Source: an uncultured Pelagibacteraceae bacterium (GTDB lineage: Bacteria; Pseudomonadota; Alphaproteobacteria; Pelagibacterales; Pelagibacteraceae). From it: 64,000 nt of DNA. This document shows, one piece after another, positions 4,995-26,605 of this stretch (positions are counted from its first letter, which is position 1; every line of letters begins with the position of its first letter). The notes under the pieces are model-generated. The model searched no databases, had not been told where the DNA came from, and saw only the letters and a program-made list of their open reading frames with translations. The stretch lies in the NCBI GenBank assembly GCA_902630065.1, contig CACOTF010000001.1, positions 133,854-197,853 on the forward strand, written 5' to 3'. A program made the position numbers and the translations under genes.

Positions 4995-5870
4995 ATGACT
5001 TCTAAAGTTGCTTTCATAGGTCTTGGTGTAATGGGTTATCCAATGGCAGGATATATATCAAAAGCAGGACATAATGTAACTGTTTTTAACAGAACAAAAT
5101 CAAAAGCAGAAAAATGGATTGGTGAATACAAAGGTAATATAGCTGATACACCATCTGAAGCTGCTAAAGATGCTGATTTTATTTTTACGTGTGTTGGGAA
5201 TGACGATGATTTAAGACAAGTTTCTTTAGGTGATAATGGGTTATTTCATAATGCTAAAGAAGGAAGTGTATATATAGATAATTCAACAGTGTCTGCTGAA
5301 ATTTCTAGAGAACTTTATAAAGCTGCAAAAGATAAAGGATTTGGTTTTTTAGATGCTCCTATATCGGGAGGACAATCAGGCGCTGAAGGTGGGATATTAA
5401 CTGTCATGGTTGGTGGAGATGATAATGATTTTAAAAAAGCAGAGCCAATAATTGATTGTTATAGCAAAAAAGTAACTTTGATTGGACCATCAGGCAGTGG
5501 ACAATTAACTAAGATGGTTAATCAAATGTGTATTGGTGGTTTAGTTCAAGGTTTATCTGAAGCAGTAAATTTTGGAATTAATGCAGGTTTAGATATGGAT
5601 AAAGTTATGGAAACTATTTCAAAAGGTGCAGCTCAATCTTGGCAAATGGAAAATAGATATAAAACTATGGTAGCTGATAAATTTGATTACGGATTTGCTG
5701 TAGATTGGATGAGAAAAGATTTAAAAATTTGTATTGAAGAAGCAAAAAGAAATGGTTCACCTGTACCAGTTACTGAAATTGTTGATGGTTATTATGCAGA
5801 AGTTCAAAAAATGGGTGGAAACCGTTGGGATAGCTCAAGTTTAATAGCTAGATTAAAAAAGAAAAAATAA
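4995..5870 (+). CDS. NAD(P)-dependent 3-hydroxyisobutyrate/2-hydroxy-3-oxopropionate reductase family oxidoreductase
   Basis: FIGLGVMGYPMA, DAPISGG and KMVNQ motifs. Confidence 0.9.
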   Translation: MTSKVAFIGLGVMGYPMAGYISKAGHNVTVFNRTKSKAEKWIGEYKGNIADTPSEAAKDADFIFTCVGNDDDLRQVSLGDNGLFHNAKEGSVYIDNSTVSAEISRELYKAAKDKGFGFLDAPISGGQSGAEGGILTVMVGGDDNDFKKAEPIIDCYSKKVTLIGPSGSGQLTKMVNQMCIGGLVQGLSEAVNFGINAGLDMDKVMETISKGAAQSWQMENRYKTMVADKFDYGFAVDWMRKDLKICIEEAKRNGSPVPVTEIVDGYYAEVQKMGGNRWDSSSLIARLKKKK

Positions 5871-5872
5871 TT

Positions 5873-6478
5873 GTGTCTACCACTGTTCCCTACTACGAGG
5901 ATTTTTCCGAAATAAAAAAGAAAATTTGGTTAATGTTAACTGATGCAGTAACTAATAGATCGTCTCCCTTTAGAATACCTGTATTTTCATGTGGAAGTGA
6001 AAACAATATCGAAAGTAGAATTGTTGTTCTTAGAAAATCAGATGAACAAAATAATTTAGTGCAATTCCACAGTGATATTAGATCTGATAAAATTAAAGTT
6101 TTAGAAAAAAATCCTAATGCCTCGATGTTATTTTACGATAAAGATGAAAAAATTCAGGTTAGATTAAAAGTTGAAGCAATTATCAATCACAATAATGATA
6201 TAACAAAACAATCTTGGGAAAAAACTCAACATATAAGTCGTAAATGTTACTTAGTAGATAATGGACCAGGTACAGAGTCTGATACTCCAACATCTGGTTT
6301 AAAACCTGAATTAGATAATTTTGATTATACAAAAGAACAAAGTGAAGAAGGATATAAAAACTTTACTGTTATACAGTGTAAAATTAAAACTATAGAATGG
6401 TTATATTTAGCTGCAAAAGGTCATCGAAGAGCTAGATTTGACCTTGATAATAGTAAAGATACTTGGTTGGTACCATAA
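5873..6478 (+). CDS. Pyridoxamine 5'-phosphate oxidase-like FMN-binding protein
   Basis: RIVVLR, HSDIRSDK, QVRL, EWLYL...HRRA pattern. Confidence 0.8.
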   Translation: MSTTVPYYEDFSEIKKKIWLMLTDAVTNRSSPFRIPVFSCGSENNIESRIVVLRKSDEQNNLVQFHSDIRSDKIKVLEKNPNASMLFYDKDEKIQVRLKVEAIINHNNDITKQSWEKTQHISRKCYLVDNGPGTESDTPTSGLKPELDNFDYTKEQSEEGYKNFTVIQCKIKTIEWLYLAAKGHRRARFDLDNSKDTWLVP

Positions 6479-6873
6479 TGAAAAAATATGAAGCTATGGT
6501 TTTGTCATGTATGGATCCAAGGTTTCAGCCAAAAGTTTTTAATTATTTAAAAAAAAAAAAATTAACTGGAAAATATAGCTCATTTACTATTGCTGGATCA
6601 GCCATTGGTGTAACTTCTAAAAAATTTAAAAATTGGCAATCAACCTTTTTAGATAATTTATCAACTTCAATAAAGTTGCATAATATTAATAAATTAATAG
6701 TTATTAATCACGAAGATTGTGGTGCAGCTAAAATAGTGAATGGAAAGAAAGAATTTAATTCAACTATTGAAAAGAAAATTCACAAGGATTCTTTTAAAAA
6801 AATCAAATCAATTATGGATAGAAAGTTTCCAGAGTTAAAAATAAATTTTAAAATTTTGTCGCTAAAAGATTAA
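6478..6873 (+). CDS. Small beta-carbonic-anhydrase-like protein
   Basis: Zn-ligand motifs CMDPR and HEDCGA; ATG at 6478 overlaps the upstream stop (TAATG). Confidence 0.75.
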   Translation: MKKYEAMVLSCMDPRFQPKVFNYLKKKKLTGKYSSFTIAGSAIGVTSKKFKNWQSTFLDNLSTSIKLHNINKLIVINHEDCGAAKIVNGKKEFNSTIEKKIHKDSFKKIKSIMDRKFPELKINFKILSLKD

Positions 6874-7169: not shown

Positions 7170-7682
7170 TTAAAAAACAGTTTTTACGTACCTTTTCCAA
7201 TTATCTTGGTAATGTTTTGCGTTCTCAGTAATTTTACCTATCTCATCATCAGTAAGTTTTCTTACTACTCTTCCTGGTGCTCCAACTACTAATGAATTGT
7301 CTGGAATTTCTTTGTTTTCAGTTATTAATGCTTTTGCACCAATGATGCAGTTTTTACCTATCTTTGCATTATTTAAAATGACAGCTCCAATACCTATTAA
7401 ACTATTGTCTCCAATTGTACATCCATGAAGCATAACGATATGACCGATAGTTACGTCTTTACCAATTCTTAATGGGCAACCTGGGTCAGTATGTAAAACA
7501 CTTCCATCTTGAACATTTGAACCTTCTCCAACATGAATATTTTCATTATCCCCTCTAATTACAGCATTAAACCAAACACTAGAGTTTTTTTCTAATGTGA
7601 CATCTCCAATAATAGTTGCATTTGGTGCTACCCAATTTTCGCCAGAGTTTTTTGGTTTTTTATCTTCCAAATCGTAAAACAT
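7170..7682 (-). CDS. Gamma-carbonic anhydrase family hexapeptide-repeat protein
   Basis: RGD, NVQDGSVLH, IGH.VMLHGC and hexapeptide repeats. Confidence 0.92.
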   Translation of the reverse strand: MFYDLEDKKPKNSGENWVAPNATIIGDVTLEKNSSVWFNAVIRGDNENIHVGEGSNVQDGSVLHTDPGCPLRIGKDVTIGHIVMLHGCTIGDNSLIGIGAVILNNAKIGKNCIIGAKALITENKEIPDNSLVVGAPGRVVRKLTDDEIGKITENAKHYQDNWKRYVKTVF

Positions 7683-7702
7683 AATTTATATATTATTACA
7701 TT

Positions 7703-8257
7703 ATGCCTATTAAAACACCAGTATGTGATTTTGGAAAAAAAGCAGAAAACTTTGAATTAAAATCTACAGAGAACAAATTAATATCTTTAAATGATATTAA
7801 AGGTGAAAATGGAACTTTGGTAATGTTTATTTGTAATCATTGTCCATATGTAAAAGCAATTATTAGAGATGTAGTGGAGGACTGTACTAAGCTTAGTGAT
7901 TTAGGAATAAATTCAGTTGCAATATGTTCTAATGATCCAATTAATTATCCGGAAGATTCTTTTGAAAAAATGATAGAGTTTGCAATTAAACATAAGTTTA
8001 ATTTTCCATACCTAATTGATGAAACCCAAGAAATTGCAAGAAAATACGATGCTGTATGTACTCCAGATTTTTTTGGTTATGATAAAGATTTTGGTCTTCA
8101 ATATAGAGGAAGAATAAGAGAATTAAGAGAACTAAAGCCTGTGAGATCTGGAGATAGTGATTTATTTTTTGCTATGAAACAAGTATCTGAAACCGGTAAA
8201 GGTCCTGAAGAACAATTTCCTAGTATGGGTTGTGGTATTAAGTGGTCATCTAATTAA
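7703..8257 (+). CDS. Thioredoxin-like AhpC/TSA family protein
   Basis: FICNHCPYV, AVCTPDFF and SMGCGIKW motifs. Confidence 0.88.
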   Translation: MPIKTPVCDFGKKAENFELKSTENKLISLNDIKGENGTLVMFICNHCPYVKAIIRDVVEDCTKLSDLGINSVAICSNDPINYPEDSFEKMIEFAIKHKFNFPYLIDETQEIARKYDAVCTPDFFGYDKDFGLQYRGRIRELRELKPVRSGDSDLFFAMKQVSETGKGPEEQFPSMGCGIKWSSN

Positions 8258-9339
8258 TGTATTTAATAATAACTAGAACTTTTCCACCCGACGTTGGTGG
8301 CATGCAAAATCTGATGTGGGGATTGGCTAGATCGTTGTCTAAACTTGATTTAGTTAAGGTATTTGCTGATTATCATGAAGATCATAAAAAATTTGATGAT
8401 AAAGTTTCTTTCACTATTGAAAGAGTTAGTGGAGTAAAGCTTTTAAGAAAGTATAGAAAATCATTGTTGATTAAAGAATATTTAAGCAAAAATAAGAATG
8501 TCAATTGTATAATAGCTGATCACTGGAAAAGTTTGGAACTTATAAAGTCTCCAAAAAAGAAAATATGTTTAATTCATTCAAAAGAAATTAATCACCCAAA
8601 AGGATCTAGATTAAACAAAAAAGTTTTAGAAGTTTTAAATAATGTTGATCACGTGGTGGCAAACTCAAATTTTACAAAAAATTTAGCCATTAATCTTGGT
8701 GTTGAAGAAAAAAGACTAGTAGTGATTAATCCTGGGGTAGATCCAGTCGAAGAAATTCCAAAAGAGGATCTTAAACAAGCTGATGAAATGCTTAAAGGAA
8801 AAAAACAAAGACTAATTACAGTTTCTAGATTTGATAAAAGAAAAAATCATGAAAAAGTCATTATGGCAATCAGAAATCTAAAAGAAAAATATCCTGATAT
8901 TACTTATACATGTATTGGATATGGTGATGAAGAAGAGAATTTAAAAAAATTAGTTATAGAATTAAAACTTGATAATTATGTAGTATTTTTAAGTGATATT
9001 TCAAACGAACTAAAAAATGCGTTGGTTGCAAAATCTAATATTTTTATTATGCCTTCAATAATTCATAAATCTTCTGTCGAAGGTTTTGGTATTTCTTTTA
9101 TAGAAGCAGCTCAATACGGAATTCCATCAATTGGTGGAAAAGATGGTGGAGCTTCAGATGCTATTATTCATGATAAAACAGGATTAATATGTGATGGAAA
9201 TAATCTTGATGAGATTTATTCAAGTATAGATAATCTATTAGAAAAAAGTAGATACTTAAATTTAGGTAAAGAGGCCAAAATTCACTCTGAAAATTTTCTC
9301 TGGGACAAGATAATTGAAAGCTATAAGAGAATATTATAA
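8257..9339 (+). CDS. Glycosyltransferase family 4
   Basis: FPPDVGGM and EGFGISFIEA motifs. Confidence 0.9.
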   Translation: MYLIITRTFPPDVGGMQNLMWGLARSLSKLDLVKVFADYHEDHKKFDDKVSFTIERVSGVKLLRKYRKSLLIKEYLSKNKNVNCIIADHWKSLELIKSPKKKICLIHSKEINHPKGSRLNKKVLEVLNNVDHVVANSNFTKNLAINLGVEEKRLVVINPGVDPVEEIPKEDLKQADEMLKGKKQRLITVSRFDKRKNHEKVIMAIRNLKEKYPDITYTCIGYGDEEENLKKLVIELKLDNYVVFLSDISNELKNALVAKSNIFIMPSIIHKSSVEGFGISFIEAAQYGIPSIGGKDGGASDAIIHDKTGLICDGNNLDEIYSSIDNLLEKSRYLNLGKEAKIHSENFLWDKIIESYKRIL

Positions 9340-12802: not shown

Positions 12803-13885
12803 ATGATAAACTTTGTAAGAGATATACCAATAAACAAAAAAGAATTTAAATTATTAATTTCACCGAAATTTTTTCTTGTAATTCTAGTATCGATACCAAG
12901 TGCAATTATCGCTGATTATTTTAATGTACCACTTGCTTGGATGATCGGACCTATGATTATAACTTCAATAGCCGCCTTAGCTGGTCTTAAAATAATTATG
13001 CCTCGTTTAGCTTTAAGCTCAGTTTTAATAATTCTGGGTCTTTATATAGGAAATTATATTGATCAAAATTTATTTAATCAAATGTTAGATTGGATATGGA
13101 CAACTTTGATAATGCTTATTTATATAATAATAAGTATTTATGTAGTTTCAAAGTATCTACAGAAATTTTCAGGATATCAAAAAAAAGCATCTATTTTTTC
13201 TGCAGCACCTGGAGCGTTAGGTCCATTAATAATTTTAGCTGAATATGAAAAATCAGATTTGTCCCAAGTTGCCACATCTCATTTAATTAGATTAATTATT
13301 ATTATTACAGTTTTTCCATTTATAATTGTGAGTTCGTCAAATCAAGAGGCTTTAATTATTAATGATTATAATTATATGGCTCAGGATCATTTCAATTTAG
13401 CTTTATTAATTGTTGGGTCATTAATTTTAATATTTATATTTGATAAGATTAAAGTTCCTGCTGCCTTACTATCGGGGACTTTAGTGGCAAGCGGAATTTT
13501 ACAAATAACAGAAGTTGCTTCTTATAAGTTGCCAGAAACAACCATCAACTTTTGTTTGTTAGTGTTGGGGGCATCCGTTGGGTGCAGATTTGCAAACAAA
13601 ACTATAAAAGAAATTGCAAACAACTCTCTTCATAGTGTAGTTGCTACAGTCATTTTAGTAATACTTGGTTTATTAGCAGCATACTTTGCAAATTTTTTTG
13701 TAGAGAATAGTCTTATGACTTTAATATTAGCTTTTTGTCCTGGAGGTATTTATGAAGTTGCAGTTATTGCTATTGCATTTGATTTAGAGCCAGATTTTGT
13801 GGCCTTTCATCATATCATTAGACTTTTGTTTATTCTATTTACTGTTCCTGTTTTTTTAAAAGTAATTGAAAAGTTTAAGAAATAG
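12803..13885 (+). CDS. AbrB-family duplicated membrane protein
   Basis: PLAWMIGPM, duplicated APGA/CPGG and HLIR/HIIR motifs; divergent from tctC. Confidence 0.85.
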   Translation: MINFVRDIPINKKEFKLLISPKFFLVILVSIPSAIIADYFNVPLAWMIGPMIITSIAALAGLKIIMPRLALSSVLIILGLYIGNYIDQNLFNQMLDWIWTTLIMLIYIIISIYVVSKYLQKFSGYQKKASIFSAAPGALGPLIILAEYEKSDLSQVATSHLIRLIIIITVFPFIIVSSSNQEALIINDYNYMAQDHFNLALLIVGSLILIFIFDKIKVPAALLSGTLVASGILQITEVASYKLPETTINFCLLVLGASVGCRFANKTIKEIANNSLHSVVATVILVILGLLAAYFANFFVENSLMTLILAFCPGGIYEVAVIAIAFDLEPDFVAFHHIIRLLFILFTVPVFLKVIEKFKK

Positions 13886-14816
13886 ACGATTTTAGTTTTT
13901 CAAAAACATTTTCTGCAGATAGTTTGCTTAAATCTGAAACCTGGATAGCTTTAAAATATTCAGTTTCAATACTAACTTTTTCTGCAGTCGTATGAGATCC
14001 AAATAATACTAAACCTTTCTTATTTAAATGAGCAGCCATATGAGCTGGTCCTGTATCATTTGAAACAATAAATGAACTCTCTTTAATAAGCGAAGACAAT
14101 TTAGAAATATTAACTGCTATACCATTGTCTAAAATACTTATAGCATCAAATTCATTTGTTAACTTTATTTCATTTGGTCCTGGTACGATTACAATTTGAA
14201 ATTGATTAGAATATTGAGATTTAATTTTCTTAATTAAATTACTAAAGTAAGGCCATCTTTTGATAGTTAAACCCGGAGATGAAAATGGAAATAAAATAAT
14301 ATATTTTTTTAAGTTATAATTACGCTTTAAATCACTTATATCTTCACAACTCCAAGAAAAATCAGGTTTCAGTACATTTTTAGTAGTTATGCCAGATGAT
14401 TTTAACTGATGTTCAAATCTTCTTAAAACTCCGTCTTTATCAAAGTTTTTTTTACTAGTTCCTTCAGGTAAAGTTGTTTCGGTGGAGGACCAAATATCTG
14501 ATCTCGATTTCGGAAAAAGAATTTTTTTATAAAAATTTGTTCGATTTGAATTTTGAAGATCATATACTTTTGAAAATTTATATTTTTTTAATTTTCTCAT
14601 TAATAAATACAAATAAACTAAATTAAATCTAGAAAGTCTTTTGTCTAAAATTATGTCTTTAAAATTTTGATTTTTTTTAAATAAATCTATGTAAGGCTTA
14701 GTTGTTAATAAGTACAAATTATCTGCTCTATGATTTTCAGATATATCTTGAATTGCCCCACTTGCTTGAGCTATATCTCCTAAAGAGCCATGTTTTATAA
14801 TAAGTATATTAGACAT
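13875..14816 (-). CDS. Glycosyltransferase family 9 (heptosyltransferase-like)
   Basis: KHGSLGD, DLQ, KRWP and SNDTGPAHMAA motifs. Confidence 0.9.
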   Translation of the reverse strand: MSNILIIKHGSLGDIAQASGAIQDISENHRADNLYLLTTKPYIDLFKKNQNFKDIILDKRLSRFNLVYLYLLMRKLKKYKFSKVYDLQNSNRTNFYKKILFPKSRSDIWSSTETTLPEGTSKKNFDKDGVLRRFEHQLKSSGITTKNVLKPDFSWSCEDISDLKRNYNLKKYIILFPFSSPGLTIKRWPYFSNLIKKIKSQYSNQFQIVIVPGPNEIKLTNEFDAISILDNGIAVNISKLSSLIKESSFIVSNDTGPAHMAAHLNKKGLVLFGSHTTAEKVSIETEYFKAIQVSDLSKLSAENVFEKLKSSIS

Positions 14817-14848
14817 ATTTTTAACAACTTAACATAATATAAAATTAT

Positions 14849-15238
14849 ATGAATAAAATTTTAGTTGAAGTGTCTGTTGGAGAATTGTTAGATAAAATTT
14901 CAATTTTAGAAATTAAATCTGAAAAAATTAAAGATCCAGAAAAATTAAATTTTATTAAAGATGAGTATAAAATTTTAAAGAATCGATTAAATACTAGTAT
15001 TAAAAATTATAATGATATTGAAAGTTTATATAATTCATTAAAAGAAATAAATTCTAAGTTATGGGTAATTGAGGATGATAAGAGACTTTGTGAAAAAAAT
15101 TCTAATTTTGGTGAAAAATTTATTAAATTATCAAGAGATGTTCACTTCTTAAATGATGAAAGATCAAAATTAAAATTAGAAATAAATAATAAGACTGGTT
15201 CTAAAATTAAAGAAATAAAAGAATATACAAAGTATTAA
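14849..15238 (+). CDS. Conserved protein (DUF6165-like)
   Basis: VSVGELLDKISILEIK...LWVIED...NDER...KEIKEY. Confidence 0.75.
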   Translation: MNKILVEVSVGELLDKISILEIKSEKIKDPEKLNFIKDEYKILKNRLNTSIKNYNDIESLYNSLKEINSKLWVIEDDKRLCEKNSNFGEKFIKLSRDVHFLNDERSKLKLEINNKTGSKIKEIKEYTKY

Positions 15239-15265
15239 TATTACTTATAAATTTTCTAAATAAAT

Positions 15266-16051
15266 TTAAACTAAACTTGGAATTATTTTTCTTAAATCCA
15301 TTGAAAGCTTAGGGTTAATTTTTGAATAGATTACTCCCTTCCCTAATTTTTTTAGTGCCAATATTTTTCCATCTGGTGAAATAATTACTGTATGGCCAAA
15401 TGTTTCTCTTTTAGGGGTATTTTTACCAGTTTGAGCTGGCGCAAAAATATAACAAAAATTTTCAATAGCTCTTGCTCTTAAAAGGGTTAACCAATGTTTT
15501 TGTCCAGTAAACTTTGTAAAAGCTGAAGGAACTGCTATAAAGCTCAAATTTTTTTTTGATAAACTTCTATAAAGTTCAGGAAATCTTAGATCAAAACAGA
15601 TAGTAAATCCTAATCTACCCCAAGGTAAATTTGCTGTAACTAATTTGTTTCCTGCTTTAAAAGTTTTACTTTCTTTATGTTGTTCTTTATTTGGTATTTT
15701 TACATCAAACATATTGATTTTGTCATAATATTTGACAACTTTTCCATTTGGTCCAATCAATATTGACCTATTTCTAAGTTTATTTTTAACCTTAACGCAA
15801 ATTGATCCGAGTAAAATCCATTTCTTATATTTTTTTGAAACTTCTTTAATTTTCTTCAAAATTGGATCTTTATTCATTTCAAATGAATATTTAAAAAGTG
15901 TTTCTCTACTACTGGACATCAAGGAAGAGGTTTCAGGTGTAATAATTAAATCAGATTTATTTTTTATAGCTTGATTTACATATTTAAGAATATCTTTGTA
16001 ATTATTTTCATAATTTTCTCCACTAGATAATTGTATGCATGCTATTTTCAT
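15266..16051 (-). CDS. Carbon-nitrogen hydrolase (Nit1-like)
   Basis: Glu-Lys-Cys triad motifs TPE, YDK and ICFDLRFPE; RARAIEN. Confidence 0.9.
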   Translation of the reverse strand: MKIACIQLSSGENYENNYKDILKYVNQAIKNKSDLIITPETSSLMSSSRETLFKYSFEMNKDPILKKIKEVSKKYKKWILLGSICVKVKNKLRNRSILIGPNGKVVKYYDKINMFDVKIPNKEQHKESKTFKAGNKLVTANLPWGRLGFTICFDLRFPELYRSLSKKNLSFIAVPSAFTKFTGQKHWLTLLRARAIENFCYIFAPAQTGKNTPKRETFGHTVIISPDGKILALKKLGKGVIYSKINPKLSMDLRKIIPSLV

Positions 16052-18342: not shown

Positions 18343-19383
18343 TTAATGATTTATTGACGAGGAAAAATTCCAAGAACAATCAAAACTTGGTATGTAAACT
18401 CTTGAAAGTTTTGTATTTCCAAAATTTTTGTTAAAAACATTTAACCAATTTTCAACTTGTTTTGGTTTTTTGTCTTGGCTTCCTACTTGAGCAGTAATTA
18501 CACCTTTGGGTTTTAATATTCTTTCTAAAGATGACATATTTTTCGCTGCCAAATCTATACAAAATTGATCATCATTAAGATCTACAAAGATTTGATCATA
18601 AGTATTGTCTTTGATAGATTTAATACTTTCAAAAGCATCTCCCCAAACACATTTAACTGAATTTTTTTCTGTGGCCTTCTCACCAATTTTGCTTAAATGT
18701 TTATCACAAACATCAACAACCTCGTGATCTAATTCATACCAATCAATAAATCCAAAATTTTGTGAAATGCATTCTCTTGCAACACCTCCATCACCTCCAC
18801 CAATAATTGCGGCTTTTTCTTTATTTGAGTTTAAATTAAGACCCGAATTTACAAAAGTTGAGCTATATAAATGTTCATCGCTTTCAGCTACTTGTATTTC
18901 ATTATCAATAAATAAAGCTTTTCCAAACTGTTCTAAATCAAGTATTTCAATATATTGACCAACTTTAGATTTAAAATTTTCCAAAACTTTATTAACAACA
19001 TATGATTTTTTTAAACCTGGGGAACTATAATTGTCATGATAAAGATCAATTGTATCTCTATTAAATTCTTTAATAATGATATTTGTATGTTCCATCTCAT
19101 ATTTTATTATATCCAGAGAAACTTTTGGAGATACTTTTCCACAAGTAAAAAAATCAAAGCTTACAATTTCTTTTTCTGGGAAAGTGTGAAAACTAATGTG
19201 ACTTTCAGCGAGTAAGGCAACTAATGTAAATCCTTGAGGTTCAAATTTATATTTAGAAATTTTTAAAACTGTTACTTTTGCTGCTTTAGCAATTTTATAA
19301 ACCAACTTTTCATAAAATTCAGGTGTGTATTCTTTTTTAGTTCCAACAATATCCAGTGTTATATGTTCGCCAACTTTTTCCAT
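18343..19383 (-). CDS. speD-speE: S-adenosylmethionine decarboxylase / spermidine synthase fusion
   Basis: N-terminal pyruvoyl cleavage motif LAESHISFHTFPE and TCG; C-terminal IGGGDGG aminopropyltransferase motif. Confidence 0.92.
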   Translation of the reverse strand: MEKVGEHITLDIVGTKKEYTPEFYEKLVYKIAKAAKVTVLKISKYKFEPQGFTLVALLAESHISFHTFPEKEIVSFDFFTCGKVSPKVSLDIIKYEMEHTNIIIKEFNRDTIDLYHDNYSSPGLKKSYVVNKVLENFKSKVGQYIEILDLEQFGKALFIDNEIQVAESDEHLYSSTFVNSGLNLNSNKEKAAIIGGGDGGVARECISQNFGFIDWYELDHEVVDVCDKHLSKIGEKATEKNSVKCVWGDAFESIKSIKDNTYDQIFVDLNDDQFCIDLAAKNMSSLERILKPKGVITAQVGSQDKKPKQVENWLNVFNKNFGNTKLSRVYIPSFDCSWNFSSSINH

Positions 19384-19472
19384 AAGAATCTAATAAATAT
19401 CTTTTTTAACTAACGAAATTTTTTACTTCTTTCAAACAAAAAACTATTATAATAATTTATTGAGGATAAACA

Positions 19473-21506
19473 TTGAAAAACAATTGGTCAGATACCGTAG
19501 CTAAAAAGTATATAAAAAAGTATAAGAAATTAGGTCATTCTGAAGATATGGCTTTAAGAGTTTATACAACTAGGCTTTTAGGAAGAAATCCAGAATTAGT
19601 ATTGCATGGTGGTGGAAATACTTCAGTTAAGACTAGAATCAAAGATATAGATGGCAAATATTACGATGTTCTTTGCGTAAAAGGCAGTGGATGGGATATG
19701 GCTGAAATTGAACCAGCAGGCCTACCAGCTGTTAAATTAGATCCGTTGCTTACTATGAAAAAAAAGAAAATACTTTCAGACGACGACATGGTTGCATTTC
19801 AAAAAAAAAATTTAATAGATACAAAATCACCTAATCCATCAGTTGAAACTTTTTTACATGCATTTTTGCCATATAAATTTGTTGATCATACTCATTCAGA
19901 TGCAATTATGAAAATCACTAATAGACCAAATGGAGAAATGCTATCAAAAAAAATATTTGGTAAAAAGACTGCAATAGTACCTTATGTAATGCCTGGATTT
20001 AAATTAGCACAAAAAATAAATGAAATTTATTCTAAAAACCCAAATATAAATTGTTTAATTTTATTAAACCATGGAATTTTCACATTTGCAAATAATGCAA
20101 AAGATGCATACAGTTTAATGATAAAGTATATATCCGATGCTGAAAAAACTTTAACCAAACTAAAAAAGAAAAAAATAAAACAGATCAAGAAAACTAAATT
20201 TAATTTTTCAACAGCAGACATAGCTCCTATATTGAGAGGTCTTTTATCTGAAAAAAATGATAACAAATTTATCTTAAATTTTAAAAAAAATAATAAGTTA
20301 GATTATTTTATTAATGGTAAAGATATAAATAGATATTCAAATGAAGGAACAGCTACTCCTGATCATGTGATAAGAGTTAAACCATTTCCTTTAATAATAT
20401 CACCAAAACCAAAATGTAGTTTGGATGAATTTAAAAATTTAGCTGAAAAAAAATTTAAAGAATACCGGCAAAAATATAAAAAATATTTTGATGTAAACAA
20501 GAAAAAAACAAAAGAAAAAAAGGTGATGCTTGATACATCTCCTAGAGTGATACTTGTTCAGAATTTTGGTTTATTTACCGTAGGTGACAGTTTAAAAGCT
20601 GCAAAAATTGCAGGAGATTTAACTCAAACTAATGCCAATGTAATTTCAAGTGTTGAAGAGACATCCAGATATAAATTCTTATCAAAAAAAGACTTATTTG
20701 ATGTCGAGTATTGGTCCTTAGAACAATCAAAATTAAACAAAGCAAAAAAGGAATTACAAGGCAACGTTGTTGTTATCACCGGTAGCACTGGTGAAATTGG
20801 TAAAGCAACTTATAAATTATTTAAAAAATATGGAGCTGAAGTTGTTTTACTTGATATTAATAAAAGTAAGATAAATGATTTACAGACTAAAATAAGCGAT
20901 CTTTGTATTCACTGTGATGTAACCAACAAACAAAGTGTAAAAAAAGCATTTAGTAAAATTTTGGAAATTTATGGAGGTGTAGACATTTTAATATCAAATG
21001 CAGGCACTGCTATTGGTGGATCAATTGCAGAAGTTAATGATGAAATACTTCGAAAAAGTTTCGAAGATAATTTTTTCTCACATCAAAATTGTGCTTCAGA
21101 GGCTGTAAAAATTATGAAAAAACAAAATATAAATGGATGTTTGTTATTTAATATATCTAAGCAATCAGTTAATCCTGGTAAAAATTTTGGACCATATGGA
21201 TTGCCTAAGTCTGCGCTTCTAAATTTGTGTAAACAATATGCAGTTGATTATGGACACCTTGGTATTAGATCAAATGGTGTTAATGCTGATAGAATAAGAA
21301 GTGGTCTATTAAATGATAAAATGATTAAACAAAGAGCAAAAGCTAGAGAAGTAACCACGGATCAATATATGAGTGGTAATCTACTGTTAAGCGAAGTTAA
21401 AGCAGATGATGTGGCTAAAGCTTTTTATCACCTTGCTATATCAAAAAAATCAACAGGTGCTGTTTTAACTGTTGATGGTGGAAATATTGCAGCATCTTTG
21501 CGATAG
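19473..21506 (+). CDS. Bifunctional class II aldolase / short-chain dehydrogenase
   Basis: GGGNTSVK, KGSG, PSVETFLH, DHTH and NHG (aldolase); TGSTGEIG, NAG, YGLPK and VDGG (SDR); TTG start. Confidence 0.9.
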   Translation: MKNNWSDTVAKKYIKKYKKLGHSEDMALRVYTTRLLGRNPELVLHGGGNTSVKTRIKDIDGKYYDVLCVKGSGWDMAEIEPAGLPAVKLDPLLTMKKKKILSDDDMVAFQKKNLIDTKSPNPSVETFLHAFLPYKFVDHTHSDAIMKITNRPNGEMLSKKIFGKKTAIVPYVMPGFKLAQKINEIYSKNPNINCLILLNHGIFTFANNAKDAYSLMIKYISDAEKTLTKLKKKKIKQIKKTKFNFSTADIAPILRGLLSEKNDNKFILNFKKNNKLDYFINGKDINRYSNEGTATPDHVIRVKPFPLIISPKPKCSLDEFKNLAEKKFKEYRQKYKKYFDVNKKKTKEKKVMLDTSPRVILVQNFGLFTVGDSLKAAKIAGDLTQTNANVISSVEETSRYKFLSKKDLFDVEYWSLEQSKLNKAKKELQGNVVVITGSTGEIGKATYKLFKKYGAEVVLLDINKSKINDLQTKISDLCIHCDVTNKQSVKKAFSKILEIYGGVDILISNAGTAIGGSIAEVNDEILRKSFEDNFFSHQNCASEAVKIMKKQNINGCLLFNISKQSVNPGKNFGPYGLPKSALLNLCKQYAVDYGHLGIRSNGVNADRIRSGLLNDKMIKQRAKAREVTTDQYMSGNLLLSEVKADDVAKAFYHLAISKKSTGAVLTVDGGNIAASLR

Positions 21507-21523
21507 TTTTAACAATTTTATTC

Positions 21524-21552
21524 TTGCAATTTATAATTTTTGTCTTCAAAAT
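21524..21552 (+). promoter_or_regulatory. Possible sigma70 promoter for trpB2
   Basis: TTGCAA-17 nt-CAAAAT; weak evidence in AT-rich DNA. Confidence 0.25.
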
Positions 21553-21566
21553 TAAGAATATAAAAA

Positions 21567-22928
21567 ATGACTGATACAATTAAATATTTTCTTGAAGAAA
21601 GCAAAATGCCTAAAACTTGGTATAATATTGCTGCTGATTTACCAAAACCAATGGAGCCACCTCTTCATCCGGGTACTTTAAAACCCATTGGTCCTGATGA
21701 TTTAGCTCCGTTGTTTCCTATGGCTTTAATTGGTCAAGAAGTTTCTCAAGATAGAGAGATAGAAATCCCTGAACCAGTAAGACAAATTTACAAACAGTGG
21801 AGACCATCTCCTTTATATAGAGCAAGAAAATTAGAAAAGCATTTAGATACTCCTGCAAAAATTTATTATAAATATGAAGGCGTTAGTCCTTCAGGTAGTC
21901 ATAAACCTAATACTGCTGTTGCTCAAGCATTTTACAATAAAGAGGAAGGCACAAAAAAAATTACAACTGAAACAGGTGCTGGACAGTGGGGAACTTCATT
22001 AGCATTTGCATGTAAATTATTTGGAATTGAATTAGACGTATACATGGTAAAAGTAAGTTTTGAACAAAAACCTTATAGAAAACTTGTTATGCAAACATAT
22101 GGGGCAAGATGTGTTGCTAGTCCATCTAATGAAACAGATAGTGGTAAAGCAATATTAGCTAAAGATCCAGATAACACTGGTAGTTTAGGTATAGCAATAT
22201 CTGAAGCAGTTGAGATGGCAGCAAAAAATCCAGATACAAAATATGCATTAGGCAGTGTATTAAATCATGTCTTAATGCACCAAACTATTGTTGGTAATGA
22301 AGCATTGTTACAAATGGAAATGGCAGATGACTATCCTGACATTTTAGTTGGTTGTACAGGTGGAGGAAGTAATTTTTCAGGTTTAGCAAATCCATTTTTA
22401 GGTAAAAATTTTAGAGAAGGTAAAAAAACAAGAGTGATAGCTTGTGAACCTAAGTCATGCCCTACATTAACAGAGGGTAAATATGTATATGATTTTGGTG
22501 ATACAGGAAAATTAACACCATTAGTAAAAATGCATACACTTGGGTCTCAATTTATACCACCAGCAACACACTCTGGAGGCTTGAGATATCATGGTATGGC
22601 TCCTTTAGTGAGTCATTTAAAAGAAATAAATGCCCTTGAAGCTAAAGCTTATGGTCAAAAAGAATGTTTCGAAGCTGGTGTAAATTTTGCAAGAACTGAA
22701 GGAATTGTTCCAGCACCAGAAGCTACTCATGCTGTTAAGGGAGCTATAGATGCTGCTTTAGAATGTAAGAAAAATGGAGAGTCTAAAACAATTTTATTCA
22801 ACTTATGTGGTCATGGTCATTTTGATATGAAAGCATACGGAGATTACTTCGAGGGAAATTTAGCAGAAGATAAGTTTGATAAAGGTAGTATGGATAAAGC
22901 TCTTGAGGACTTACCGAAAATTGCATAG
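21567..22928 (+). CDS. trpB2: TrpB2-type PLP enzyme (stand-alone tryptophan synthase beta)
   Basis: 453 aa; PKTWYNI, GSHKPNTA (PLP Lys), TETGAGQWG, GGGSNF and GGLRYHG; no trpA nearby. Confidence 0.9.
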   Translation: MTDTIKYFLEESKMPKTWYNIAADLPKPMEPPLHPGTLKPIGPDDLAPLFPMALIGQEVSQDREIEIPEPVRQIYKQWRPSPLYRARKLEKHLDTPAKIYYKYEGVSPSGSHKPNTAVAQAFYNKEEGTKKITTETGAGQWGTSLAFACKLFGIELDVYMVKVSFEQKPYRKLVMQTYGARCVASPSNETDSGKAILAKDPDNTGSLGIAISEAVEMAAKNPDTKYALGSVLNHVLMHQTIVGNEALLQMEMADDYPDILVGCTGGGSNFSGLANPFLGKNFREGKKTRVIACEPKSCPTLTEGKYVYDFGDTGKLTPLVKMHTLGSQFIPPATHSGGLRYHGMAPLVSHLKEINALEAKAYGQKECFEAGVNFARTEGIVPAPEATHAVKGAIDAALECKKNGESKTILFNLCGHGHFDMKAYGDYFEGNLAEDKFDKGSMDKALEDLPKIA

Positions 22929-22933
22929 TTATT

Positions 22934-24034
22934 TTGAGTCTCATAACACCATTTAGAGGAATAAGACCACAGGTTAAGTTTGCTAAAAAAATCTCATCAC
23001 CAAATATAAGTTACTTAAATAATTTTAAATTTAGCAAAGACAAAAACTTTCTTAATATTTTAAATAATCCAAATATATCTTATGCAAACAAAATATTTAA
23101 AGAATTAGAAAAAAATAAAATCATATTTCAAGACAAAAAAGATAACTATTATCTTTATAAAATATCATTTAAAAAAAAATACTTGTTAGGAATAGTAGGT
23201 AAAATAAATTTAAAAAACTACGACGACAAAAAAATTTTAGGACATGAAGAGACTTTTCCTGAAAGAATAAAAAAAAGAAAACAACAGTTAATAAAGTTTA
23301 ATACACAAATTAGTCCAATATATACTACATATAAGTTAAATAAGTTGTCTTTATCAACTTTAAAAAAACTTTTTAAATTTAAACCTAATTATGAATTTAT
23401 TTCAAATGATAAATGTAAACACGAATTATGGGTAATTGAAGATAAAGATAAACAGACTAAAGTACAAAAATATTTAAATAAAATTAAAAAATTATACATT
23501 TGTGATGGACATCATAGACTTCAAGCGATGTTAAAAAGTAAAGAAAAAATTTCACCTATGATTATAGCTTTTCCAGATAAGCAAGTTGAAATATTGGATT
23601 ACAATAGAGTCATACAATCAAATTTAAATTTTAAACAAATACATAATATAATTTCAAAATACTTTTCTATTAAAATAAAGAAAACTAAAAAACTAAAAAA
23701 AAATGAAATTGGAATGTATATAAATAATACATGGTATATTATTAAATACCTAAAAAAATCCAAAGATTTAGATATTACAATTCTTAAAAAATTTATTATT
23801 GATAAAATTTTAAAAAATAAAAAAAATATAAAGTATGTATCTGGTATTAAAGGAGATGTTATATTAAAAAAACTTGTTAATTCAGGTAAATTTAATGTTG
23901 CATTTAAATTAAATCCTACAAATCTTTTACAAGTAATGTCTTTTGCTGAGAAGAAAAAGTATATGCCTCAAAAATCCACTTGGTTTCATCCAAAACCGCT
24001 TGATGGTTTAATATTGTCAAAAGTTATTTCTTAA
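22934..24034 (+). CDS. DUF1015 family protein (ParB/Srx-like fold)
   Basis: PFRGIRP, HEET, YICDGHHR and MPQKSTWFHPK motifs. Confidence 0.88.
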   Translation: MSLITPFRGIRPQVKFAKKISSPNISYLNNFKFSKDKNFLNILNNPNISYANKIFKELEKNKIIFQDKKDNYYLYKISFKKKYLLGIVGKINLKNYDDKKILGHEETFPERIKKRKQQLIKFNTQISPIYTTYKLNKLSLSTLKKLFKFKPNYEFISNDKCKHELWVIEDKDKQTKVQKYLNKIKKLYICDGHHRLQAMLKSKEKISPMIIAFPDKQVEILDYNRVIQSNLNFKQIHNIISKYFSIKIKKTKKLKKNEIGMYINNTWYIIKYLKKSKDLDITILKKFIIDKILKNKKNIKYVSGIKGDVILKKLVNSGKFNVAFKLNPTNLLQVMSFAEKKKYMPQKSTWFHPKPLDGLILSKVIS

Positions 24035-25103
24035 ATAAGTTTTCTAATCCTTCAGTTGAAGCATTACAAACTCCTTTTTCTGTTATTAATGCAGTAACAT
24101 ATTTAGCAGGTGTTACATCAAAGGCTAAATTTAATGATTTGCTTTTTTCGGGATATATTAAAACTTTATCCACTTTATTATCTTTGTTAATTCCATCCAC
24201 ATGAGAAAGTTCTTTTGGATCTCTTTCTTCTATAGGAATATCTTTTGCGTTTTTTAAATTCCAATCTATCGTTGAACTTGGTAAAGCTACGTAAAAAGGT
24301 ACCTTATTATCATGAGCTGCAAGAGCTTTTAAATAGGTTCCAATTTTATTGCACACATCTCCGTTAGATAATGTTCTATCTGTTCCAACAATACACATAT
24401 CAACCTGTCCTCTTTGCATTAATATTCCACCTGTATTATCTGCTATAATTGTATTTGGAATTTCTTCTTCATTAAGTTCATATGATGTAAGGTTTGCTCC
24501 TTGATTTCTTGGTCTAGTTTCATCTACCCAAACATGTATAGGTATTCCTTTTTTATGTGCATGATAAATAGGAGAAGTTGCTGTTCCCCAATCTATTGTA
24601 GCTAACCAACCTGCATTACAATGTGTGAGAATATTGACGGTATCTTTCTTTTTATTATATATATCTTCAATAATATTTAATCCATTTTTACCAATACTTT
24701 CACAAAATCCCTCATCCTCTTTACAAATTTCTTTAGCTTCATTGAGTGCAACATTAAATAAATCTCCAGGTTCAACAAATGACAATTTGTTATTCATTCT
24801 ATGAACTGCCCACTGAAGATTTATTGCTGTTGGTCTAGATGCAACTAATTTCTCTGAACTTTTTTTTATAAAATCTAAACTGTTATTTTCTTTTATAGCT
24901 AAAACCAATCCAAATGCAGCTGTACCTCCGATTAATGGAGCACCTCTCACTTCCATTGTTTTTATAGCATTTATCGCGTCTTTAACTGAATTTAATTCTT
25001 TTATTATAAACTTATGTGGAAGCTTTGTTTGATCTATTATTTTTACAACCTGTTTTTCTTCATCAAACCAAATTGTTTTATATTTAACACCATTAATTTT
25101 CAT
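24024..25103 (-). CDS. mtnA: Methylthioribose-1-phosphate isomerase
   Basis: DQTKLP, VRGAPLIG, SRPTAINL, THCNAGWLAT, ETRP and NKIGTY motifs. Confidence 0.95.
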   Translation of the reverse strand: MKINGVKYKTIWFDEEKQVVKIIDQTKLPHKFIIKELNSVKDAINAIKTMEVRGAPLIGGTAAFGLVLAIKENNSLDFIKKSSEKLVASRPTAINLQWAVHRMNNKLSFVEPGDLFNVALNEAKEICKEDEGFCESIGKNGLNIIEDIYNKKKDTVNILTHCNAGWLATIDWGTATSPIYHAHKKGIPIHVWVDETRPRNQGANLTSYELNEEEIPNTIIADNTGGILMQRGQVDMCIVGTDRTLSNGDVCNKIGTYLKALAAHDNKVPFYVALPSSTIDWNLKNAKDIPIEERDPKELSHVDGINKDNKVDKVLIYPEKSKSLNLAFDVTPAKYVTALITEKGVCNASTEGLENLFKK

Positions 25104-26528: not shown

Positions 26529-26605
26529 TGGTAGCGGGAAGTGGGATCGAACCACTGACCTCGGGCTTATGAGTCCCGCGCTCTAACCAACTGAGCTACC
26601 CCGCC
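26529..26605 (-). tRNA. tRNA with CAT anticodon (probably elongator Met)
   Basis: GGCGGGGTAGCTCAGTTGGTTAGAGCGCGGGACTCATAAGCCCGAGGTCAGTGGTTCGATCCCACTTCCCGCTACCA; 77 nt, encoded CCA; lacks initiator features; Ile2 not fully excluded. Confidence 0.93.

Follow-up and report, generated by a model that had tools for sequence, protein, structure and literature searches.

The window, a stretch of 64,000 nucleotides from contig 1 (CACOTF010000001.1, positions 133,854 to 197,853) of an uncultured Pelagibacteraceae (SAR11) bacterium, was found to carry a cassette of two adjacent genes, trpB2 and a short form of a DUF1015 gene. On balance, these genes probably encode a kinase of free serine and a TrpB2 which uses O-phosphoserine, the two together serving the ATP-driven salvage of indole to tryptophan. 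A two-gene module leading from a serine kinase to TrpB2 had been put forward in an initial annotation of this DNA, and the in silico checks named there came out in its favour; with both activities inferred, it is held here with moderate confidence overall. The two genes are as follows:

Positions 21567-22928, plus strand: trpB2, ATG start, 453 aa, TrpB2-type pyridoxal phosphate (PLP)-dependent beta-replacement enzyme
Positions 22934-24034, plus strand: short-form DUF1015 gene, TTG start, 366 aa, predicted free L-serine kinase, PF06245

The stop codon of trpB2 is separated from the start codon of the DUF1015 gene by 5 nt (22929-22933), and a check of the open reading frames and of the sequence returned the coordinates, this gap and the HEE and DGHHR motifs of the DUF1015 protein just as first annotated. 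The G+C content of the window is ~29%, and the assembly to which its contig belongs spans 0.96 Mb and is 67.7% complete.

It is proposed that the short DUF1015 protein would act as a free L-serine kinase, forming O-phospho-L-serine from serine and ATP or ADP, and that TrpB2 would join this phosphoserine to indole, yielding tryptophan and phosphate. As no other source of phosphoserine was identified, TrpB2 seems to depend on the kinase alone for its preferred substrate, and this would explain why the pair is gained and lost as a unit. The short form itself would descend from bidirectional enzymes of the SerBK type, which are normally found together with serC and serA.

The DUF1015 protein matched PF06245 with 168.2 bits (cut-off 25.8) over profile positions 1-320 of 325, and a scan against NCBIfam returned no model matching it. 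Ten columns are invariant in an alignment of 105 members of the family (H104, E105, D191, G192, H193, H194, R195, K347, T349, and P353); the window protein, in which the two motifs read H104-E105-E106 and D191-G-H-H-R195, retains all ten of these residues and all 26 of the nearly invariant ones. An AlphaFold2 model calculated with this alignment as input had a mean pLDDT of 95 and a pTM of 0.92. Comparison of the model with the PDB by Foldseek gave nine matches at E ≤ 1e-3, all with a probability of 1.0 and E-values of 7e-8 to 8e-7, namely SerK of Thermococcus kodakarensis (5x0b, 5x0k, 5x0g, 5x0e, and 5x0j), its Pyrococcus homologue (1vk1) and SbnI (6nr6, 5uje, and 5ujd), while the tenth match had a probability of only 0.13. 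With VIA-align, Z-scores of 15.2-15.9 were obtained against SerK, with 221-226 of its 241 residues aligned (SerK residues 6-240), and of 13.8-14.2 against SbnI, the next match being sulfiredoxin, a minimal ParB/Srx fold, at 5.7.

At the level of sequence the relationship is faint. A single-sequence phmmer search of the PDB with the DUF1015 protein returned spurious myosin matches only, and a profile of the DUF1015 family placed 1vk1 and SerK at the top with weak scores (E 0.05-0.55) and three collinear motifs. In this profile alignment HE falls on H29-E30 of SerK, DGHHR on DGHHR and PpKST on PKTT, a correspondence of aligned columns rather than a residue-level superposition in three dimensions; E30 of SerK is the residue mutated (E30A, E30Q) in PDB entries 5x0e, 5x0g, 5x0j, and 5x0k. 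The initial expectation that the structure would superpose on SerK and SbnI was borne out, in that Foldseek and VIA-align matched these proteins alone and the catalytic motifs are aligned. The model thus points to a free L-serine kinase of the SerK/SbnI (ParB/Srx) fold, which would be related to SerK and SbnI in structure, with similarity in sequence no more than weak.

A function of this kind had already been put forward for other members of the family. For a DUF1015 protein from a clostridium, Foldseek ranked SbnI first (Price et al., GapMind 2026; bioRxiv 10.1101/2024.10.14.618325, PLoS Genet, PMC13759103), the DUF1015 protein CBO1128 complements a serB mutant of E. coli, and BT1151 is required for growth on L-serine as nitrogen source; the family was named SerBK and proposed to be a serine kinase, its direction (kinase or phosphatase-like) being left open (Price et al., 2026, PMC13759103).

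The partner gene product was identified as TrpB2 by the models NF009057 (729.7 bits, cut-off 366) and TIGR01415 (626.9 bits, cut-off 518.85), and it scored 146 bits against the canonical trpB model TIGR00263, under the cut-off of 392. Its closest structures in the PDB are those of Sulfolobus TrpB2 (6hul, 4qys, and 6hte; 387-444 bits), with which it has the segment GGLRYHG in common, and its PLP lysine is K113 in SGSHKPN. Pairwise alignments placed Arg340 of GGLRYHG where the TrpB1 enzymes (LBCA-TrpB and Pyrococcus TrpB) carry the Asp of GLDYPG, an exchange which we take to be the determinant of phosphoserine use that Busch and co-workers described. Both R340 and K113 are invariant across 28 TrpB2 proteins from more than 20 families, and TrpB2 as a whole is 55-75% identical across the Pseudomonadota, with ~130 invariant positions which include the ETGAGQ segment. 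TrpB2 enzymes are reported to be O-phosphoserine-dependent tryptophan synthases with a specificity set by a single residue (Busch et al., 2014). A prediction of the complex of TrpB2 with DUF1015 gave an ipSAE of 0.00; it was run without controls and was counted neither for nor against the module.

The description of TrpB2 as a stand-alone enzyme without trpA was found to hold at the locus, where no trpA is adjacent, and not for the genome, which keeps a canonical trpB-trpA on contig 2. Since trpA is kept in all pair-bearing genomes, the role of TrpB2 would be that of a salvage or auxiliary route and not of the main pathway, and TrpB2 is an additional paralogue rather than a replacement for canonical TrpB. 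The canonical TrpB of the window genome (G000:C2:111483-112592, L001) narrowly missed the TIGR00263 cut-off of 392.45 with a score of 389.4 bits, which fits the report that trpB_1 of SAR11 forms a distinct, early-branching cluster (2008, PMC2395257).

The direction of the DUF1015 reaction was considered in the light of the serine pathway. No match to SerC was found in the window genome (G000) or in four complete pair-bearing genomes, whether the query was the TIGR01364 model or the TIGR01365-type protein from genome G105, and a tblastn search of the window genome with the latter protein also found nothing; in the same genomes there was no SerB above cut-off. The search for SerA returned only two dehydrogenases of ~200 bits, well below the cut-off for phosphoglycerate dehydrogenase (PGDH), and an absence of SerA is not claimed. 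These searches agree with the earlier statement that SAR11 has an incomplete phosphoserine pathway and is auxotrophic for glycine and serine, as does the literature, in which the phosphorylated route to serine is described as missing or incomplete in 129 of 135 complete Pelagibacter genomes, GlyA as universal and the strains of SAR11 subclade Ia as conditional glycine/serine auxotrophs. Because no SerC or SerB was found, there would be no phosphoserine to dephosphorylate, and the kinase direction would be the only productive one; for the short DUF1015 this direction is read from genome content. TrpB2 is the only identified consumer of phosphoserine in the pair-bearing Pelagibacter. The distribution relative to the ser genes follows the pattern suggested beforehand, the pair occurring in genomes where no SerC or SerB was found and the long form of DUF1015 together with serC and serA.

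The two genes are tightly linked within SAR11. TrpB2 was found in 10 of the 151 genomes sampled from the order, and in all five other holders of the genus (G035, G067, G087, G122, and G131) the short DUF1015 gene lies directly 3′ of trpB2. The same order was seen in a Pelagibacteraceae single-amplified genome (SAG; L027) and on a metagenome contig (L025) carrying a relative that is 53% identical (P0123). A scan of metagenomes with the window DUF1015 yielded 39 short-form loci, with trpB2 upstream in 30 of the 30 that were assessable, i.e., that reached at least 100 nt upstream of DUF1015, at a gap of 11-18 nt. Counted over genomes, the adjacency is present in seven, which is every assessable case, and neither trpB2 nor the short DUF1015 was found without the other in the sample of the genus. 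The nearest relatives (G125 and G138) have flanks which are 96-98% identical and the order speDE, aldolase/short-chain dehydrogenase-reductase (SDR) fusion, mtnA, in which mtnA directly adjoins the aldolase gene and the pair is absent; since exactly the pair is missing there, its 2.5 kb behave as one indel. The cassette is accessory, being present in ~8% of the sampled Pelagibacter species, and the recurrence of the adjacency is far beyond chance. That the adjacency is conserved, as initially supposed, is true throughout the short-form clade and at two further loci (L029 and L033), and does not extend to the other genomes holding both genes, 93 of which have them apart.

Linkage outside this clade is rarer. 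Of 80 diverse DUF1015 loci taken from species-representative genomes, three have trpB2 next to DUF1015 (L027, L029, and L033). The DUF1015 of L029, a Rhodospirillaceae metagenome-assembled genome, falls into a remote clade of the tree, which makes its adjacency to trpB2 an independent event. At L033, from an alphaproteobacterial SAG, genes for a DMT-family transporter, TrpB2, DUF1015, SerC and SerA all run in one direction; the aminotransferase scored 522 bits against the phosphoserine transaminase model TIGR01365, above its curated cut-off, and the dehydrogenase is PGDH-like. It is plausible that this operon represents an ancestor-like state, of which the SAR11 pair would remain once serC and serA had been lost. 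No TrpB2 match was found in the 224 nt upstream of DUF1015 at L026, a stretch too short to judge. The transporter gene of L033 (5565-6482) lies directly 5′ of trpB2, and its product, of the EamA/DMT type, weakly resembles YddG, an exporter of aromatic amino acids; judging from this resemblance it could be a carrier of indole or tryptophan.

At the level of whole genomes, 401 Pseudomonadota included 46 with TrpB2, 73 with DUF1015 and 35 with both, compared with 8.4 expected, in at least 10 families; all 59 TrpB2 holders among 171 Bacteroidota have DUF1015, against a base rate of 160 of 171. Both sets of counts ignore shared ancestry. In the control genomes DUF1015 was present in three of the four which were positive for TrpB2. 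Clustering of the neighbours of trpB2 in 20 other proteobacterial families revealed no recurrent partner. As DUF1015 is near-universal in the Bacteroidota sample (160/171; G551-G725), where TrpB2 is also common (59/171), the final step of serine synthesis there may as a rule be carried out by an enzyme of the SerBK type. In genus g8 (L016:7232-8431, G008), where trpB2 stands apart from DUF1015, a 399-aa 2-hydroxyacid dehydrogenase about the size of the E. coli-type SerA is encoded two genes 5′ of trpB2.

Within the sampled Pelagibacterales, DUF1015 is present in 53 of the 151 genomes, and most of these proteins are of a form of ~405 aa encoded in the order DUF1015, aminotransferase, 2-hydroxyacid dehydrogenase (and in some cases phosphoglycerate mutase). 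The long form is accompanied by serC and serA in G105, G008, L026, L033, and L174, an association typical of the SerBK context which was not seen for the window DUF1015. The short form has 366-377 aa and is 26-40% identical to the long forms, compared with which ~40 residues have been lost by deletion at seven places: one each behind residues 29, 43, and 208, and four minor gaps within the inserted domain. All seven are loop positions, either of the N-terminal region or of the inserted domain. A quick maximum-likelihood tree united the eight short proteins in one clade (SH-aLRT 99) on a long stem; nearest to it were long forms from low-GC marine alphaproteobacteria, the branch order among which is not settled by the tree. 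This tree carried long-branch and composition warnings and was used only for the monophyly of the short clade and for the distance of L029.

The short form has also diverged faster than its neighbours. Over the same pairs of genomes, identity was 92-99% for TrpB2 and 51-65% for DUF1015, with ~79% for MtnA, ~89% for MtnP and ~81% for SpeDE. At a synonymous divergence (dS) of 0.6-0.9, the ratio of nonsynonymous to synonymous divergence (dN/dS) was 0.12-0.13 for DUF1015, 0.03 for TrpB2 and 0.04-0.06 for the neighbours, which indicates that the DUF1015 gene is kept by selection under a looser constraint. Between the window and G131 (L011, 8600-11061) TrpB2 is 98.9% identical (dS ~1.0, dN/dS 0.009) and DUF1015 52% (dN/dS 0.34), a mismatch which suggests either a recombination breakpoint between the two genes or an acceleration in one lineage.

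Several observations weigh against an indole-salvaging serine kinase module. The published assay of a DUF1015 protein, the complementation of serB, corresponds to net dephosphorylation of phosphoserine in vivo, so that the kinase direction rests on there being no match to SerC and no SerA above the PGDH cut-off. The short form evolves ~4 times faster than TrpB2 and has lost ~40 loop residues, and its substrate may have changed. The two genes are non-adjacent in 34 proteobacterial and 59 Bacteroidota genomes which hold both, and the co-occurrence counts carry no correction for phylogeny. The canonical trpA and trpB1 are retained, and these could also use exogenous indole with free serine. Finally, we infer the activities of both enzymes, the direction of DUF1015, indole as the nucleophile and the physiological role from predicted structure and genome content.

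These points bear in part on an alternative, considered unlikely, in which DUF1015 is a general SerBK enzyme that fulfils its own housekeeping function, serving another consumer of phosphoserine or removing phosphoserine, and its adjacency to trpB2 reflects descent from an old operon. The long forms do act in serine synthesis or utilisation with serA and serC, most genomes holding both genes keep them apart, and the arrangement trpB2-DUF1015-serC-serA of L033 looks ancestral, of which the SAR11 pair could be a remnant. However, with no SerC or SerB found in the pair-bearing Pelagibacter, such an enzyme would have nothing to interconvert with central metabolism. The short DUF1015 was moreover never seen without trpB2 in the genus sample or at the assessable metagenomic loci, it is gained and lost with trpB2 as one indel, and it is under purifying selection.

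It is less probable still that the short DUF1015 has diverged towards a new substrate or a non-catalytic role, as a regulator or chaperone of TrpB2, and makes no phosphoserine. Its protein divergence is the fastest in the locus (identity down to 51-65%, dN/dS up to 0.34 between the window and G131), and the long stem branch and the loop deletions point the same way. However, the ten invariant and 26 nearly invariant residues are kept, including those which fall on the catalytic motifs of SerK, the deletions are confined to loops, and dN/dS is well below 1.

The surroundings of the cassette raise the question of the nucleophile. The features on either side are as follows:

Positions 18343-19383, minus strand: speD-speE fusion (S-adenosylmethionine decarboxylase and aminopropyltransferase), PF02675 and PF01564, left border of the variable slot
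Positions 19473-21506, plus strand: class II aldolase/SDR fusion, 677 aa, NF006192 898 bits, context outside the cassette
Positions 21509-21537, plus strand: promoter-like site TTAACA-17-TATAAT, 11 of 12 positions matching, inside the 60-nt gap 5′ of trpB2
Positions 24024-25103, minus strand: mtnA (S-methyl-5-thioribose-1-phosphate isomerase), NF004326 450 bits

The aldolase/SDR fusion thus lies upstream of trpB2, and mtnA is convergent with the DUF1015 gene, overlapping it by 11 nt at the DUF1015 stop. MtnA, MtnP, Apt and the SpeD-SpeE fusion were all identified by family models, which confirms that the pair sits inside a methylthio-salvage cluster, as the initial annotation had noted. The promoter-like site has the top score in the interval 19300-24300, and the total number of such sites does not exceed that in shuffled sequences; it is weak evidence for a possible promoter of the cassette's own. 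SpeD and SpeE (spermidine synthase) are fused in a single protein of 346 aa, whose gene adjoins those which dispose of the by-product methylthioadenosine (MTA).

All 39 metagenomic short-form loci and all seven genomic ones occupy one slot, which extends from speDE and a class II aldolase to mtnA-mtnP-apt, with mtnA as the right-hand border at all loci. Beside speDE the slot holds, as alternatives, either a FucA-like class II aldolase of 210 aa (e.g., L014:11276-11908) or the aldolase/SDR fusion of 677 aa. Each type was found both with and without the pair, so that all four states of the slot exist; among 77 genomes of the genus, 12 carry the fusion, and 11 of these 12 are without the pair. 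The sister family has apt, mtnP, mtnA and the aldolase/SDR gene together in a single operon, all running the same way (L131 and L132; G012 and G092), which ties the aldolases to MTA salvage. A dihydroxyacetone phosphate (DHAP) shunt is known from other bacteria, and the aldolase branch of SAR11 resembles it. The aldolase genes look like a DHAP-shunt-type branch of MTA salvage in SAR11, in which the SDR domain of the fusion possibly handles the methylthioacetaldehyde product.

It was therefore considered whether the pair serves MTA salvage, with TrpB2 joining phosphoserine to a sulfur nucleophile to give cysteine or S-methylcysteine; sulfide or methanethiol had been offered initially as alternatives to indole. 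Every one of the metagenomic and genomic loci lies in the MTA slot, SAR11 depends on reduced sulfur according to the literature, and the fold-type II PLP superfamily includes phosphoserine sulfhydrylases. Nevertheless, this appears very doubtful. The pair and the two aldolase types assort independently, and no mtn genes were found near trpB2 in L033, in L029, in genus g8 or in 20 other families; trpB2 lies in a ser operon in L033, stands alone in genus g8 and has no common neighbour in those families. TrpB2 moreover remains 55-75% identical across the Pseudomonadota, with its ~130 invariant positions. The constant position in SAR11 is explained by a single ancestral insertion followed by vertical descent, and the placement beside the mtn genes is accordingly read as historical. 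Since the pair is inherited independently of the MTA aldolase genes and occurs outside the mtn context elsewhere, the sulfur nucleophile is left unsupported. The bolder version, in which the cassette is not for indole and an ATP-activated beta-substitution captures a sulfur nucleophile from the adjacent DHAP-shunt-like aldolase branch, is given very little credence; if true, it would amount to a new aerobic route from MTA sulfur to cysteine or S-methylcysteine in the sulfur-auxotrophic SAR11.

Equally improbable is adjacency without function, i.e., two unrelated accessory genes hitch-hiking in a recombination-prone slot of a streamlined genome, for although the slot is variable (four states) and SAR11 packs unrelated genes tightly, the adjacency arose separately in L029, where the DUF1015 is a distant one, and exists in L033 too, co-occurrence at the genome level is strong in two phyla, and O-phosphoserine links both enzyme families in independent literature.

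A number of further features of the cluster were recorded. Extra stretches of 0.9-2.2 kb between mtnP and mtnA, mtnA and DUF1015, or mtnP and apt were seen in L011 (G131; 5633-6547 and 7617-8600) and L013 (G087; 13422-15619); the window is without them, and the cluster as a whole is prone to small insertions. Among sequencing runs, marine DNA runs were listed which contain about half of the sampled sequence words, and RNA runs which contain 9-13% of them; these shares do not count as evidence of expression, of habitat or of the indel. A tRNA gene (26532-26605, minus strand) lies directly past apt at the edge of the MTA-salvage cluster, and the same tRNA occupies the matching place in L014. Rfam scans of the locus and of a presumed spacer returned only tRNA, and the presumed spacer turned out to be a gene. 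The mtnA of one complete Pelagibacter genome (L137, G031:C1:802810-803790) has one TGA and one TAA in frame; on its sequence, it would be an apparent pseudogene in a genus which is said to have almost none.

The proposal that DUF1015 is a serine kinase has already been published (Price et al., 2026), and the use of phosphoserine by TrpB2 was reported in 2014. A literature search found no paper linking TrpB2 with DUF1015 or describing the SAR11 cassette, and the 2008 paper on SAR11 and trpB_2 does not mention the cassette; the coupling of a serine kinase with TrpB2 in SAR11 thus appears to be undescribed. What TrpB2 does physiologically, and where its phosphoserine comes from, have been vague since 2002 and 2014, and a co-inherited predicted kinase whose gene lies 5 nt downstream makes the clearest case from genomic data to date for phosphoserine as its substrate in vivo. 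The short clade of DUF1015 occurs in genomes to which the kinase direction alone would be useful, and its activity would be informative on the direction for the whole family. If the indole-salvage module is real, an oligotroph limited for serine and glycine could capture indole irreversibly at the cost of one ATP, a hint that indole may be traded among organisms of the surface ocean.

Of the known systems, the SerBK proteins (CDIF630erm_01132, CBO1128, and BT1151) are those of the same family. They share with the window protein PF06245, the invariant residues, a fold like that of SerK and SbnI and, by prediction, a chemistry of serine and O-phosphoserine. The window protein differs in belonging to a separate short clade (~366 compared with ~405 aa, 26-40% identity, long stem branch) and in adjoining trpB2 and not serA or serC, in genomes where no SerC was found, whereas SerBK is defined by its replacement of the phosphatase SerB. 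On the side of the partner, the TrpB2 enzymes of Thermotoga maritima and Saccharolobus solfataricus (Hettwer and Sterner, 2002; Busch et al., 2014) are of the same family by curated models; the arginine of GGLRYHG is kept, and trpB2 is located away from the trp operon (the "TrpB2o" situation). The SAR11 TrpB2, however, belongs to a mesophilic marine bacterium with a streamlined genome and is coupled to a predicted phosphoserine supplier of its own, while the organisms of the characterised enzymes make phosphoserine via SerA and SerC.

The best structural match is SerK (TK0378) of T. kodakarensis, with a Z-score of 15.9 over nearly the full chain and the HE, DGHHR and PK(S/T)T motifs collinear. 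This archaeon makes cysteine from serine via phosphoserine (Makino, 2016, PMC5120207), and its SerK phosphorylates serine to feed a PLP enzyme downstream, a logic which the SAR11 cassette would have in common. SerK differs in its size of 241 aa, its archaeal origin, its dependence on ADP and an end product which is cysteine instead of the tryptophan proposed for SAR11. In the synthesis of staphyloferrin B by Staphylococcus aureus, SbnI, a serine kinase of the ParB/Srx fold, stands beside SbnA, a fold-type II PLP enzyme which uses O-phosphoserine, and the SAR11 cassette would share the logic of this gene pair; the model of its DUF1015 protein matches SbnI in structure (Z ~14). The nucleophile of SbnA is glutamate, whereas indole is proposed for TrpB2, and compared with SbnI the predicted DUF1015 kinase has an extra N-terminal region and an inserted domain, with no significant similarity in sequence. 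If borne out, the SAR11 cassette would be the third natural combination of a free serine kinase with a phosphoserine-dependent PLP enzyme, after SerK in cysteine synthesis and SbnI-SbnA.

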